A model generated the notes under the pieces. That model was not told the origin of the DNA and searched no databases. It worked only from the letters and a program-made list of their open reading frames with translations. A stretch of DNA of 64,000 nt, from the NCBI GenBank assembly GCA_052145435.1, contig JBKQOR010000125.1:2872-66871 (forward strand), written 5' to 3'. A program made the translations under genes and the position numbers. The DNA comes from Rhodomicrobium sp. Its GTDB lineage: Bacteria; Pseudomonadota; Alphaproteobacteria; Rhizobiales; Rhodomicrobiaceae. Positions 17,664 through 24,656 of the stretch are shown here, in pieces (positions within the stretch are counted from its first letter, which is position 1; each line of letters begins with the position of its first letter).

Positions 17664-17677
17664 TTGACCGGCATCAA
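17664..17677. promoter_or_regulatory. FNR/FixK-type binding box
   Basis: TTGACCGGCATCAA matches TTGA-N6-TCAA (one mismatch to TTGAT-N4-ATCAA) and ends 92 nt before the next start codon. Confidence 0.6.
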
Positions 17678-17769
17678 GGCCCGTGAAGGTTCCCCTGCGT
17701 AAACATCTTTCCGGGCAATTGGGCCGCGATCTGCTTTTGCAGTAAATCGGAGCCGCATGGAGGAAGACG

Positions 17770-18147
17770 ATGTTGAAGCTTATCGAGGGTCTACCGACGG
17801 ACGTGATGGGCATCGAGGCTATCGGCAAGGTTACCCATGAAGATTATAAAACCGTCCTCATCCCGATGGCCGAAGCCATGATCGCCAAGGGGCCGATCAA
17901 GATGCTTTATGTTGCCGGGCAGGATTTTGACGGTTACGAGCTTGAGGCGCTCTGGGACGACGGCACATTCGGCGTGAAGCATTGGCATGATTTCACCCGT
18001 GTCGCGGTGGTTGCGGACCAGACGTGGCTTCGCGCCGCCGTCACGATGTTCAGGCCCTTCTTCCCGTGCGAAGTCCGCCTTTTCAGGCTCGCCGGTCTGG
18101 CTGCGGCGAAGGCTTGGATTACAAGCCCGCAAAAGGCGGGCGCCTAA
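17770..18147 (+). CDS. STAS/SEC14 domain (SpoIIAA-like) protein
   Basis: [35 protein letters not shown] pattern. The stop overlaps the atpD start (TAATG). Confidence 0.85.
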
Positions 18148-19580
18148 TGGCACACCCGCAGAACGCAGGCGATATGCAGTCTCCCGGGCGGGTCATTGCC
18201 GTTCACGGCTCAGTCGTCGATGCAAGCTTCCCTGCAGGCGCCTTACCGGACATCGAAGAAGCGATCGCAATCGAAGCCGGCTCCTTTCGCGATCTCATCG
18301 CAGAAGTTCAGCAGCATCTTGGTCCCACAACCATACGGGCGGTCGCGCTTGAAAATACAGCGGGGCTTTCCCGCGGCGCGCGGGTCCGGGCAACCGGCGC
18401 GCCCATTCGCGTCCCCGTCGGACAGGCCGTGCTTGGACGGCTTCTCAACGCTACCGGTGAGCTGGCCGATCGCGGGCCGCCGCTCCCCCAGAGCACGGAG
18501 CGCCGGCCCATTCATGCGGCGGCGCCTTCGATCGCCCGGCTTGGGGCCACGCTTGAGGTATTTCACACAGGCATTAAGGTCGTCGATCTGCTCGCGCCCC
18601 TCGTGAAAGGCGGCAAAGCAGCGATGTTCGGCGGTGCAGGCGTCGGCAAGACCGTGCTGATCATGGAGCTGATCCGCACGGCGGTCGAACGGCATTCGGG
18701 AATTTCCGTCTTCGCTGGAATTGGCGAGCGCTCGCGTGAGGGTCACGAGCTGCTGCTGGAGCTCAGGCAATCCGGCGTTCTTGCGCGCACCGCGCTTGTC
18801 TTCGGGCAAATGAACGAGCCGCCAGGAGCGCGCTGGCGGGCCGGACTGACGGCTCTCACGATCGCGGAGCATTTTCGCGACGACGCTCATGAGAATGTGC
18901 TGCTCTTGATCGACAACGTCTACCGCTTGGTTCAAGCAGGCAGTGAAGTGTCCGGCCTGCTCGGACGCCTGCCTTCGCGTGTCGGCTATCAGCCCACTTT
19001 AGCGGGCGAAATCGCCGAGCTTGAGGAACGCATCGCCTCGGTGGGCGGATCCGCCATCACTTCGATTCAGGCCGTCTATGTCCCTGCGGACGACTTTACA
19101 GACCCCGCCGTGGCAGAGATCTTCAGCCACCTCGATTCATCGATCGTCCTATCCCGCGACATGGCGAGCGAGGGCATGTATCCGGCGGTGGACCCGCTCG
19201 GCTCGGCTTCAAGCTTGCTCGATCCGCGCCTTGTGGGCGAGGAGCATTACCGCATTGCACAAGATGTCCGCAAAATCATCGCTCACTATCGCGACCTTCA
19301 GCAGATCATTGCCCTGCTCGGTATCGAGGAGCTGAGCGCGGCAGACCGGCAGGCCGTCAAGCGCGCGCGCCGTCTTATGCGGTTTCTAACCCAGCCCTTC
19401 ATGGTCACGACCGCATTCACCGGCAAACCCGGCAGATCGGTGGAACTCGCGGCGACGCTTAAAGGATGCCGCGCGATACTGGATGGGAAAACCGACGGCT
19501 GGGCCGAGAGCTCTCTTTACATGATTGGCGATCTCGCAGAAGCCACGCAGCGCGAAGCCGCTGCCGCAAGGAGCACGTAA
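18147..19580 (+). CDS. atpD: N-ATPase (second F-type ATPase) subunit beta
   Basis: [38 protein letters not shown]. The DELSEED motif is altered to EELSAAD. Confidence 0.95.
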
Positions 19581-22281: not shown

Positions 22282-23782
22282 GGACCTGCGAGAGTGGCTC
22301 AGGAAGAGCCGCCAACGTATCGCGGCCCTGCCGCTTGAACCGAAGCTGGAGCAGATCGGCCGGGTTGTTCGGGCCGGTGACGGCGTGGCGACGGTTCGCG
22401 GCCTACCGGACACGCGTCTTGATGAGTTGCTCGTTTTTGAAGGCGGCGTGCACGGTCTTGCGGTCGATCTCGGCGAAGATGCGATCGGATGCGTGCTGCT
22501 AGGCGGCATCAGCGGGATTGCTTCCGGCAGTATTGTGCGCGGCACCGCCGAAGTAGCGCGCGTTCCCGTAGGCGACGCCTTGCTCGGCCGAGTGGTCGAT
22601 GCGCTGGGAGTCCCGCTCGATGGCGGTGAGCCGCCGGAGGCCGCGTTGTTTGCGCCGGTCGAGCGGCCGGCACCCGCGATCGTCGACCGCTCGCTCGTGA
22701 CGCAGCCGCTTGCCACCGGGCTCCTCGTCATCGATGCCATGATCCCCTTGGGCAGGGGCCAGCGCGAACTCATTATCGGCGACCGCGGAACGGGGAAAAC
22801 CGCCATCGCCGTCGACACGATCATCAATCAGCGATCGAGCGACGTTATTTGCGTCTACGCAGCCGTTGGCCAGAAGGCATCATCGGTCGCGCAGGCGATC
22901 GAGGCTGTGCGCCACTACGGTGCGCCAGAGCGGTGTCTTTTTGTGATCGGTGAAGCCAACGCCCCACCGGGTCTGCAGTGGCTTACGCCCTATGCCGCTT
23001 GCACCATGGCGGAATATTTCATGGAGCGCGGGCGCGACGTTCTCTTGGTCATCGATGACCTCACAAAGCATGCGGCTATCTACAGGCAAATATCGCTCTT
23101 GCTGCGCAGGCCTCCTGGGCGCGAGGCTTACCCCGGCGATATCTTCTACATCCATTCGCGCCTGCTCGAACGCGCAGCGAAGCTTTCGCCCGGGCGAGGC
23201 GGCGGTTCTCTCACGGCCCTGCCCATCGCGGAGACGCAGGCCGGCAATATCAGTGCTTATATCCCTACGAATCTCATTTCGATTACCGACGGCCAAATCT
23301 ATCTCGATCCGCGCCTCTTCTACGAGGACCAGAAGCCTGCCGCCAATGTTGGCAAGAGTGTATCGCGTGTTGGCGGCAAGACACAGGCCCCAGCGCTCAA
23401 GACTTTGTCGGACAGTCTGCGGCTTGAATACGCGCAGTTTCTCGAACTGGAAGTGTTCACCCGCTTCGGCTCCATGGTTGATGAGCGCACACGGAAGGTC
23501 ATCGAGCACGGCAAACGCATCCGGGCGGTGCTCGGGCAGCGGCAATTCCAGCCGATGTCCCTTGGCGAGCAGGTGGCAATCCTCTGCGCGCTCGACGATG
23601 GCATGCTCGATCTCCTGCCGCTCGATCGCGTAGGAGCTTTCCGCGATGCAATTGGTCCGTGGCTTGCCGAAAACTGTCCTGAAATCGCCGCGCTCGACGA
23701 CCGGTCGGTAGCGCTGCCCGGCGAGTCCCGCGCCTGGCTGAAATCGGCGCTAAAAGCGCTCGCGCAATCGTTACCGGTGTAA
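22265..23782 (+). CDS. atpA: N-ATPase subunit alpha
   Basis: GRGQRELIIGDRGTGKT, LLRRPPGREAYPGD, ISITDGQI. Confidence 0.95.
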   Translation: MATLTEDLREWLRKSRQRIAALPLEPKLEQIGRVVRAGDGVATVRGLPDTRLDELLVFEGGVHGLAVDLGEDAIGCVLLGGISGIASGSIVRGTAEVARVPVGDALLGRVVDALGVPLDGGEPPEAALFAPVERPAPAIVDRSLVTQPLATGLLVIDAMIPLGRGQRELIIGDRGTGKTAIAVDTIINQRSSDVICVYAAVGQKASSVAQAIEAVRHYGAPERCLFVIGEANAPPGLQWLTPYAACTMAEYFMERGRDVLLVIDDLTKHAAIYRQISLLLRRPPGREAYPGDIFYIHSRLLERAAKLSPGRGGGSLTALPIAETQAGNISAYIPTNLISITDGQIYLDPRLFYEDQKPAANVGKSVSRVGGKTQAPALKTLSDSLRLEYAQFLELEVFTRFGSMVDERTRKVIEHGKRIRAVLGQRQFQPMSLGEQVAILCALDDGMLDLLPLDRVGAFRDAIGPWLAENCPEIAALDDRSVALPGESRAWLKSALKALAQSLPV

Positions 23783-23807
23783 AAGAAACCCGCGCGGATA
23801 GGCAGCC

Positions 23808-24656
23808 ATGCAACGTCTTACCGAACTCCAAGATCGCATCGCCAGCATGGGCGAGCTTCAGGATATCGTAAGCGCAATGCGATCGCTGGCGGGTATGCGC
23901 GTACAGGAAGCCCAGCAGGCACTCCCCGGTATCCGGCGGTATGCCGAGTCGATGGCAGCCGCGATCGGCGCGGCCCTCATGCTTATGGCGCGTCAGGAGC
24001 CGGCGCCACAGGGCAGGCAAGGAATTCGAGTGCTTATCCTATGTACGTCAGAGCATGGCTTTGTCGCGGGCTTTAATGAGCGGCTTATCGAAGCGGCAGA
24101 AGCAGAGATCAAAACCCGCGATGTACTTTTTGCGCTCGGTAGCCGCGGCGCGGCGCTCGCGCTTGAGCGAGGCCTGCAACCAGCTTGGGCAAGCCCTATG
24201 GCCTCCCGGCTCGCTGGGGCTCCGGACACAGTCAATCAGCTTACAAGAGAACTCTATAGCCGCATTGCGCAGGGCGAGATCTCCCGCGTGGAGGTCATGT
24301 TCAGCCGCTACCGCCAGGGTGTTCAATCGACAATCGAACGGCGCCTGCTCCTGCCGCTCGACACCGCTTCCCTTGCCGCTGCACAGCCGCGCCAGGAGCC
24401 GCTTCACAACCTGGAGCCGGCGGCTCTCTTTGAGAAGCTCGCGGCTGAATATGTGTTCGCACTGTTGACTGAGGCGGCTGTGGAATCGATCGCAAGCGAA
24501 AATGCGGCGCGCTTCTCGGCCATGGAGGCCGCCTGCGATAACGTCCAGAAGAAGCTCGAGCAATTGCAGCAGGACGCCAGCCAAGCCCGGCAGATCGAGA
24601 TCACCAGCGAGTTGCTCGACCTTGTGACCGGTGCGGAAGCGCTATCTGGCACATGA
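23808..24656 (+). CDS. atpG: N-ATPase subunit gamma
   Basis: IVSAMRSLAG, SENAARFSAMEAA, RQIEITSELLDLVTGAEA. Confidence 0.93.
   Translation: MQRLTELQDRIASMGELQDIVSAMRSLAGMRVQEAQQALPGIRRYAESMAAAIGAALMLMARQEPAPQGRQGIRVLILCTSEHGFVAGFNERLIEAAEAEIKTRDVLFALGSRGAALALERGLQPAWASPMASRLAGAPDTVNQLTRELYSRIAQGEISRVEVMFSRYRQGVQSTIERRLLLPLDTASLAAAQPRQEPLHNLEPAALFEKLAAEYVFALLTEAAVESIASENAARFSAMEAACDNVQKKLEQLQQDASQARQIEITSELLDLVTGAEALSGT

Follow-up and report, generated by a model that had tools for sequence, protein, structure and literature searches.

A 64-kb stretch of DNA from an uncultured alphaproteobacterium (hereafter the window) carries ten co-directional genes, a SpoIIAA-like/STAS gene followed by atpDCQRBEFAG, which encode an N-ATPase and are preceded by a perfect FNR/FixK-type box, TTGACCGGCATCAA. 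The same box is found upstream of N-ATPase operons of the same genus and recurs in other families, and the genome encodes regulators of the corresponding type. We consider it rather likely that these observations are best explained, as a whole, by an FNR/FixK class II operator, an operon expressed at low oxygen and a proton-coupled rotary machine working in a "low gear".

The operon and its N-ATPase

An earlier note on this DNA had described ten tightly packed or overlapping genes behind the box, and had read atpDCQRBEFAG without atpH as an N-ATPase; both descriptions proved correct, the first from the open reading frames and the second with every hallmark tested. Adjacent genes (Table 1) either overlap by 1–17 nt or are separated by gaps of 2–25 nt, with the stop codon of the STAS gene overlapping the ATG of atpD by 1 nt. 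Beyond atpG, a carboxyltransferase gene runs towards the operon, with its end at 24675.

The hallmarks of N-ATPases were defined by Dibrova, Galperin and Mulkidjanian in 2010 (PMC2881411). The order atpD-C-Q-R-B-E-F-A-G is present at 18147–24656, as derived from open reading frames and Pfam/NCBIfam assignments, and a Pfam search of the operon's reading frames revealed no atpH or OSCP-only gene. Residues 172–241 of the long AtpF match PF00213 (OSCP) with 23.5 bits, at a cut-off of 22.3. The hallmark gene atpR scored above the cut-off of PF12966 and below that of TIGR03165 (27.3, cut-off 55.5), and its product has membrane arginines, R32 and R54, lying within stretches judged by eye to be hydrophobic. 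Furthermore, a canonical ATPase is encoded alongside: on contig C15, tblastn identified genes for F-type alpha and beta (49–53% identity), and on contig C46 it found another gene for an a subunit. In the beta-subunit tree AtpD and 45 further N-type beta subunits fall together (46 N-type sequences), and the genome's own F-type beta forms a long outgroup branch to them. It should be added that the TIGR "alternate F1F0" models for alpha and beta remained below their cut-offs (642 vs 750.5 and 616 vs 752, respectively).

Table 1. Features of the N-ATPase operon and its upstream region (window coordinates).
Feature	Positions	Strand	Basis
FNR/FixK-type box TTGACCGGCATCAA, palindromic half-sites TTGA / TCAA	17664–17677	.	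Sequence match, conservation
Genus-conserved block GCGTAAACATCTT, genus consensus cgcGTAAcCAT	17697–17709	+	Alignment of 9 genus promoters
Ribosome-binding site GGAGGA, 5 nt 5' of ATG at 17770	17759–17764	+	Read from sequence
SpoIIAA-like/STAS gene, 125 aa, first in operon	17770–18147	+	PF11964, 97.4 bits
atpD, N-ATPase beta subunit	18147–19580	+	Profile matches; beta-subunit tree
atpC, epsilon subunit	19580–20035	+	PF02823; NF009981, 174 bits (cut-off 160); TIGR03166 (alt_F1F0 epsilon), 109 (cut-off 100)
atpQ (ATPase gene 1)	20032–20313	+	PF09527; TIGR02230, 80 bits (cut-off 46.7)
atpR, N-ATPase-specific membrane subunit	20310–20597	+	PF12966, 36.7 bits (cut-off 26)
atpB, a subunit	20597–21271	+	PF00119; NF009955, 317 bits (cut-off 302)
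atpE, c subunit, two-carboxylate site	21281–21523	+	PF00137; NF009998, 135 bits (cut-off 116)
atpF, long b subunit, 251 aa, delta-like C-terminus	21526–22281	+	PF00430 + PF00213
atpA, alpha subunit	22265–23782	+	NF009884, 712 bits (cut-off 554)
atpG, gamma subunit, final operon gene	23808–24656	+	PF00231; ORF list

In its gene order, the lack of a delta subunit and the presence of atpQ and atpR, the operon resembles the N-ATPase clusters of Burkholderia pseudomallei and B. thailandensis, from which it differs by its host, an uncultured alphaproteobacterium, and by the added STAS gene in first position. The similarity extends to the c subunit. Alignment to solved c-rings placed the site residues of AtpE at E26 and E59-T60-M61 with Y64. 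The second membrane glutamate that counts among the N-ATPase hallmarks is E26, which corresponds to E32 of the Fusobacterium ring (3zk1), whereas E59 occupies the position of the essential glutamate. The site is identical (E, E-T-M, Y) to that reported for the proton-specific c17 ring of B. pseudomallei, with residues E30/E61/T62/M63/Y66 (PMC5376962), and because of this identity the present enzyme is most likely proton-coupled as well.

The STAS gene was considered as a general N-ATPase component and rejected as such, being located 5' of atpD in just 4 of 48 loci, in one of which it contains an in-frame stop. Genes neighbouring N-ATPase operons elsewhere include those for Usp, FixS/CcoS, PhaC and phasin.

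Conservation of the box and promoter layout

FNR/FixK proteins recognise the sequence TTGA-N6-TCAA; class II FNR sites of Escherichia coli are centred at −41.5, and in rhizobia FixK/FnrN boxes precede fixNOQP, hemN and fixK. TTGACCGGCATCAA is the sole perfect match in the whole window, and its centre (17670.5) lies 99.5 nt 5' of the ATG at 17770. Shuffled windows contained on average 0.71 perfect boxes, with at least one box in 51 of 100 shuffles, and one-mismatch boxes occurred at chance level (15 observed vs 15.8 expected). Since a lone perfect box per 64 kb corresponds to the chance expectation, significance drawn from the window count alone was dropped and the case for the box was built on its conservation.

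Within the genus, nine of ten distinct N-ATPase loci have a perfect box, leaving a single locus devoid of it. All eight half-site bases are invariant in the nine box-bearing promoters and the spacer varies, while the 50 nt 5' of the box are unalignable in the same promoters, at random level. Outside the genus, a perfect box was found within 250 nt of atpD in 9 of 38 N-ATPase loci (conservation of the site being put at 9–11 of the 38), with a rough binomial p of ~2e-9 against a background of 1.4% of genes, a figure taken from a crude gene caller and from the present genome only. Only perfect boxes were counted, and one-mismatch sites at five loci are given merely as possible. Moreover, 10 perfect boxes were counted in 9.5 kb of atpD-proximal upstream DNA outside the genus, a 16-fold excess over the intergenic box density of the present genome, and none in the neighbouring coding DNA, which amounts to 119.9 kb. 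The box recurs at N-ATPase operons in at least 7–9 other families, two boxes being present at one locus from another class, and the loci that possess a box are dispersed across the beta-subunit tree in a manner that forces at least eight changes. About 60–75% of the loci outside the genus are without a box, and the link between box and N-ATPase is therefore frequent, not general. A search farther 5' of co-directional Usp, PhaC, CcoS and STAS genes at five loci did not reveal boxes.

It is this conservation that sets the box apart from chance. An element of the −10 type, TAAACA (17700–17705), was detected inside the genus-conserved block GCGTAAACATCTT, occupying −12 to −7 if the box centre is placed at −41.5; it is weak, with its final T missing. 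The spacing of the block after TCAA is constant (20 nt) in 7 of 9 genus promoters, and the majority base was counted in 6.8 of 9 sequences within the block vs 3.9 of 9 upstream. The conserved −10-like block is positioned at +23 to +28 past the box, and genome-wide the motif TAnnnT peaks at +22 to +25 after boxes. In loci where the STAS gene is absent, the same promoter block stands directly 5' of atpD, which identifies it as that of the operon. The layout suggests class II geometry, with a transcription start predicted at ~17712. Scanning 17450–17850 for the sigma-70 consensus and for terminators gave no match, and the missing consensus is as expected for an activator-dependent promoter; an Rfam scan of the leader returned a single meaningless snoRNA match (E 0.98).

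The earlier note had placed the box ~100 nt before the first start codon, with a spacing fitting a class II site at −41.5, and had named conservation in orthologous loci as one of the points on which its proposal could fail. The distance was confirmed, the −10-like element occurs where that spacing requires it, giving the start near 17712 that the note had expected, and the box is retained in nine of the ten orthologous loci of the genus and recurs in other families.

Regulators and the proposed low-oxygen control

The genome encodes at least five close CRP/FNR paralogs and, on contig C134, a CRP-type protein of more distant relationship, with cNMP_binding, HTH_Crp_2 and Crp domains detected by Pfam. 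Three paralogs are of FnrN type, with C-X2-C-X7-C, a central Cys and the DNA-reading motif E--SR, and one is of FixK type, possessing the E--SR motif and lacking the Cys cluster. Paralogs share the preference for TTGA-N6-TCAA, so that the site cannot be assigned to FnrN or FixK from its sequence.

Genome-wide, 90 perfect boxes were counted vs ~25 expected, and 53 of the 90 lie in the ~19% of DNA called non-coding. A test based on GC by codon position gave no discrimination and a crude codon-usage caller was used for gene calling instead; it miscalls some small genes, and intergenic box counts are consequently approximate. Genes marked by the box include those for a CRP/FNR regulator (fnr), COX1/ccoN-like, HemN, CydA (two genes), ALAS-like and CBS proteins, and others.

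The promoter of the N-ATPase operon is thus like known class II FNR/FixK promoters in having TTGA-N6-TCAA ~20–23 nt before a weak −10, with cognate regulators encoded, and the system as a whole is like them in that the box precedes ccoN-like, hemN, cydA and fnr genes. Unlike in the known cases, the target here is an N-ATPase operon. It was not found as a target in the papers on FNR/FixK regulons that were compared (PMC2908626, PMC4634722, PMC5398030, PMC3050613, PMC4999443), and literature searches yielded no publication naming an FNR/FixK site at such an operon.

Control of the operon by FNR/FixK, as put forward in the earlier note, gains support from the conservation, the −10-like element, the encoded regulators and the box-marked regulon, and the N-ATPase is probably a part of the low-oxygen response. 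The box would act as the operator of a class II promoter dependent on an FNR/FixK-family activator. When oxygen becomes scarce, an oxygen-sensing, Fe-S-containing regulator of FnrN type, or one of FixK type, would bind it and recruit RNA polymerase to the weak −10, producing from ~17712 a transcript that would span the STAS gene and atpDCQRBEFAG. Such regulator-driven transcription would add the N-ATPase to the low-oxygen regulon, whose other members include cbb3-type and bd oxidases, hemN, hemA and fnr itself. If the ring is as large as that of B. pseudomallei, the enzyme may be a "low-gear" machine moving ~5–6 H+ per ATP. Its main job would be to maintain a minimal proton-motive force and the pH of the cytoplasm, with little ATP spent, at times of failing respiration.

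Expression reports from other organisms are consistent with this proposal. The ATPase cluster of B. pseudomallei chromosome II (atpD-2 to atpG-2, of N-type order) is described as hypoxia-induced, as it also is in B. thailandensis persisters, and denitrification and the arginine deiminase pathway are induced along with the Burkholderia cluster (PMC4187911). The Burkholderia literature compared concerns expression only, whereas a regulator site is proposed here, and the role suggested for that N-ATPase is acid survival in phagosomes. Likewise, the N-ATPase of Nitrospira marina is tied to low oxygen by the higher abundance of several of its subunits (PMC8115632); this enzyme, from another phylum, is taken to be Na+-coupled, and neither a regulator nor a site was named for it.

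Direction of operation and alternative readings

The same regulation might serve the opposite work, with the N-ATPase acting as a low-gear ATP synthase that uses the weak micro-oxic proton-motive force, its large c-ring making ATP below the threshold of an ordinary F-type enzyme. We regard this as possible but doubtful. The box-marked high-affinity oxidases (the ccoN-like gene and the two cydA genes) imply that respiration continues at low oxygen, and the B. pseudomallei ring of 17 subunits translocates 5.7 H+ per ATP (PMC5376962), which on thermodynamic grounds would lower the proton-motive force needed for synthesis to ~90–100 mV. Under hypoxia Burkholderia represses its F-type cluster and induces the N-type one (PMC4187911), and for the "alternate" atp2 operon of Rhodopseudomonas palustris TIE-1 the authors suggested ATP synthesis during electron uptake (PMC6430793). 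However, N-ATPases are never the sole rotary ATPase of a genome and have been argued not to synthesise ATP (PMC2881411), co-induction of the Burkholderia enzyme with the ATP-yielding arginine deiminase pathway (PMC4187911) fits ATP consumption better, and a ring of 17 subunits is the Burkholderia value, assumed for the present enzyme as is the direction of operation. The ATP-driven proton pump holding the membrane potential that the earlier note gave as an example is plausible, and is not distinguished here from a low-force ATP synthase.

An improbable reading is that the box is bound by a CRP/FNR paralog that does not respond to oxygen (e.g., an NO-responsive one of NnrR/Dnr type) or by a repressor. 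The number of paralogs with a common half-site preference would allow the former, albeit NnrR/Dnr regulons themselves belong to the low-oxygen/denitrification response. Repression has a precedent in Dinoroseobacter shibae, where FnrL and DnrD repress ordinary atp operons (PMC5398030), but the fixed distance between box and −10-like element, conserved over many families, is the geometry of activating class II sites, there is no strong sigma-70 promoter overlapping the box to be blocked, and the N-ATPases measured were induced, not repressed, at low oxygen (PMC8115632, PMC4187911). Finally, a chance palindrome without regulatory role, the operon being driven by another promoter, would agree with the shuffled-window counts and the poor −10, but is extremely unlikely in view of half-sites that stay invariant between completely diverged flanks, the recurrence in further families and the excess over intergenic density.

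Since N-ATPases were defined in 2010, their physiological role has variously been proposed to be the extrusion of sodium, survival in acid or adaptation to alkaline-saline conditions. Hypoxic induction has already been published and the box is unnamed in the literature found, which makes the present result an incremental but useful regulon prediction. Low-oxygen control through FNR/FixK would provide N-ATPases with a regulator and, in oxygen limitation, with a definite cue that can be put to the test, and the recurrent box connects the scattered reports of hypoxic induction from Burkholderia and Nitrospira. Much more tentatively, across Proteobacteria the N-ATPase might primarily be an FNR/FixK-controlled low-oxygen machine and not a pump directed against salt or acid, proton-coupled, with a large ring, a low gear and an equilibrium at ~90–100 mV. 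If this set-point is true, cells would go on making ATP while the proton-motive force is weak and, once it drops below that level, would keep the membrane energised at minimal ATP cost, the ordinary F-type enzyme being turned down meanwhile; the recurrent STAS partner might then serve as a brake that senses nucleotides or signals. Falsifying the promoter prediction would take little effort, with little lost if it is wrong, and the question of pump versus synthase becomes testable in culturable alphaproteobacteria that bear the box.

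The box and the operon behind it

A single perfect match to the FNR/FixK-type palindrome TTGA-N6-TCAA was found in the 64-kb window (see the table), its centre lying 99.5 nt upstream of the ATG of the first of ten genes that follow in the same direction; this ATG is preceded by GGAGGA, and the gene junctions are either overlaps of 1-17 nt or gaps of 2-25 nt. The match proves nothing alone, since dinucleotide shuffles yielded 0.71 perfect boxes per window, and one-mismatch boxes occurred in the window at chance frequency. One of these, located 133 nt ahead of the main box, overlaps the stop codon of the upstream gene and was not seen in the relatives. 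The upstream gene itself has a strong coding score in our codon model; its sole Pfam match was a sub-threshold Zeta_toxin hit (residues 254-408, E 0.0023, 17.8 bits vs a cut-off of 22.3).

The operon is devoid of atpH, and its atpF is long, with an OSCP-like C-terminus. Its assignment to the N-ATPases in the earlier note was borne out by all tested defining features listed by Dibrova et al. (PMC2881411), the sole caveat being that the scores with TIGR 'alternate F1F0' alpha and beta models were under the strict cut-offs. F-type alpha and beta genes of the ordinary kind are located on contig C15 of the same genome, and a further a-subunit gene on contig C46. The SpoIIAA-like/STAS gene was first in the operon at only four of 48 N-ATPase loci, and their position in two distant beta-subunit clades (the window locus, L002 and L016 vs L114) suggests that this gene was recruited repeatedly. 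In L016, it carries an in-frame stop at codon 44.

Location of features at the window locus, at other N-ATPase loci (L) and on contig C98 of the source genome
Feature	Location	Strand	Description
Upstream gene	window 15741-17534	+	597 aa
One-mismatch box	window 17531-17544		TTGACCCCGGTCCA
Perfect box	window 17664-17677		TTGACCGGCATCAA
Genus-conserved block	window 17697-17709		cgcGTAAcCATtTAT
TAAACA	window 17700-17705		within the conserved block
Transcription start (predicted)	window near 17712		as proposed in the earlier note
First operon gene	window 17770-18147	+	SpoIIAA-like/STAS protein, PF11964
Remaining operon genes, in order			atpD, atpC, atpQ (PF09527), atpR (PF12966), atpB, atpE, atpF, atpA, atpG
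STAS gene, first in operon	L002 953-1321
STAS gene, first in operon	L016 2091-2468
STAS gene, first in operon	L114		upstream of atpD
Transposase-like fragment	L008 ~670-990		upstream of operon; …MLERLNQEIKRRIHVVRIFRNPE
Acetate kinase-like ORF	L022 1-975		Novosphingobium capsulatum
Identical 14 bases	C98 8638-8651		TTGACCGGCATCAA

Conservation within the genus and promoter geometry

Same-genus loci were collected by a search of 40 relatives, in which N-type beta genes (84-88% identical) were present in 9 of 24 same-genus genomes, and one close locus, L016, was added from a scan of named genomes. Conservation of the box in orthologous loci had been set beforehand as a refutation test for the proposed FNR/FixK control, and the proposal withstood it: a perfect box was located upstream in nine of ten distinct loci, the near-duplicate L015, also boxed, being left out of this count. 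The only same-genus locus without the box is L008. Upstream of its operon, a fragment resembling an IS256-family transposase was recognised by eye; an insertion may have displaced the promoter here. In the loci lacking the STAS gene, the distance from the box to atpD is 92-165 nt, and in the three same-genus loci possessing this gene the box precedes the latter, which argues for a promoter of the whole operon.

Nine same-genus promoters were aligned without gaps, anchored on the box. All eight half-site positions were identical in 9/9, with a variable 6-nt spacer, while the 50 nt upstream of the box were at random level (majority count 3.9/9) and a block, cgcGTAAcCAT, started exactly 20 nt past TCAA (6.8/9); alignment with MAFFT agreed with this comparison. 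With the box centre set at -41.5, the block places TAAACA of the window at -12 to -7, and the transcription start is predicted accordingly close to the position suggested earlier. Genome-wide, TAnnnT peaks at +22 to +25 past the boxes, as expected of class II promoters, i.e. those with the activator site centred at about -41.5. The conserved block is longer than a -10 hexamer and could contain a second signal, e.g. an extended promoter element or a site for another protein.

Recurrence outside the genus and the predicted regulon of the source genome

A further 38 N-ATPase loci came from the named-genome scan and from even samplings of 400 genomes of the class and 400 of the phylum. At nine of them (L096, L099, L106-L110, L113 and L131, the last from another class and with two boxes), a perfect box lies no more than 250 nt from atpD, centred approx. 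67-126 nt upstream; additionally, L105 has its box 97 nt upstream of a phasin gene standing ahead of atpD, and in L024 it is 343 nt upstream. Box density in the upstream stretches of the loci outside the genus was 1.05 per kb, vs zero in 119.9 kb of adjoining coding DNA and about 0.064 per kb in the non-coding DNA of the source genome, where just 1.4% of genes have a box within 250 nt upstream. Against this background, 9/38 corresponds to a binomial p of ~2e-9, which is only approximate, given the incomplete independence of the loci and a background taken from one genome. Most boxed promoters outside the genus have a TA-rich hexamer 20-23 nt past the box. In the maximum-likelihood tree of beta subunits, boxed loci were scattered across all major N-type clades, with at least eight changes forced by well-supported branches. 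About two-thirds of the N-ATPase loci outside the genus have no box, and the association is therefore frequent, not universal. The box is missing from both N-ATPase loci (L097 and L118) of one genome, G169, whose beta genes belong to different clades, with 83% and 67% identity to the query.

The source assembly contains 90 perfect boxes vs ~25 expected from base composition, and 53 of them are inside the ~19% of DNA called non-coding; these calls and the background gene calls were made with our own crude gene caller. Pfam-confirmed genes behind boxes encode a CRP/FNR regulator, heme-copper oxidase subunit I (ccoN-like), HemN, cytochrome bd subunit I, an ALAS-like enzyme, a CBS-pair protein, DUF3141, an ADP-forming acyl-CoA synthetase/GNAT protein and an AMP-binding enzyme, a set typical of low-oxygen regulons in rhizobia and rhodobacteria. 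The box of the AMP-binding enzyme, on C98, has the same 14 bases as the window box and stands ~60 nt upstream of its gene (585 aa, acyl-CoA synthetase-like). Five close CRP/FNR paralogs are encoded, all with the E--SR DNA-reading motif: three (on contigs C140, C79 and C160) possess C-X2-C-X7-C and a central Cys, the FnrN/FnrL pattern, one (on C5) has no Cys cluster and is FixK-like, and another is cut by a contig end.

Published low-oxygen expression of N-ATPases and likely function

According to one study (PMC4187911), the chromosome II ATPase cluster (N-type order, atpD-2 to atpG-2) is induced in Burkholderia pseudomallei under hypoxia and in persisters of B. thailandensis, the denitrification and arginine deiminase pathways being co-induced and the chromosome I ATPase cluster repressed. 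N-ATPase subunits of Nitrospira marina rise at low O2 (PMC8115632), and the 'alternate' atp2 of Rhodopseudomonas palustris TIE-1 is induced during phototrophic electron uptake (PMC6430793). These expression data and the box point the same way. In other genomes, N-ATPase operons are flanked by genes for Usp, FixS/CcoS with a P-type ATPase, PhaC and phasin; in L017, a P-type ATPase gene and fixS/ccoS stand immediately ahead of the operon. In L022, an acetate kinase-like ORF was recognised by eye ~1.5 kb upstream of a box-less operon.

The kind of site, the enzyme and hypoxic induction of N-ATPases are already known, and in the literature we found no report in which an FNR/FixK site is named for an N-ATPase operon or such an operon is counted in an FNR/FixK regulon; the operon is thus a new, well-supported predicted member of the low-oxygen regulon. 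Its generalisation, recurrence of the box in front of N-ATPase operons in different families, is moderately interesting.

Alignment of the c subunit to solved rings matched E26 to the second carboxylate of two-Glu rings and gave the site E59-T60-M61..Y64. Exactly the same site residues were named by Schulz et al. for the B. pseudomallei N-type ring (E30, E61, T62, M63, Y66), which has 17 subunits, is proton-specific and moves 5.7 H+ per ATP (PMC5376962). By this analogy, the N-ATPase of Rhodomicrobium sp. is probably proton-coupled. A serious rival is that it acts as an ATP synthase at low pmf; thermodynamically, we infer, one enzyme could both pump and synthesise, below and above a low set-point, respectively. 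The favoured role is that of an economical ATP-driven proton pump, which would keep the membrane energised when respiration falters.
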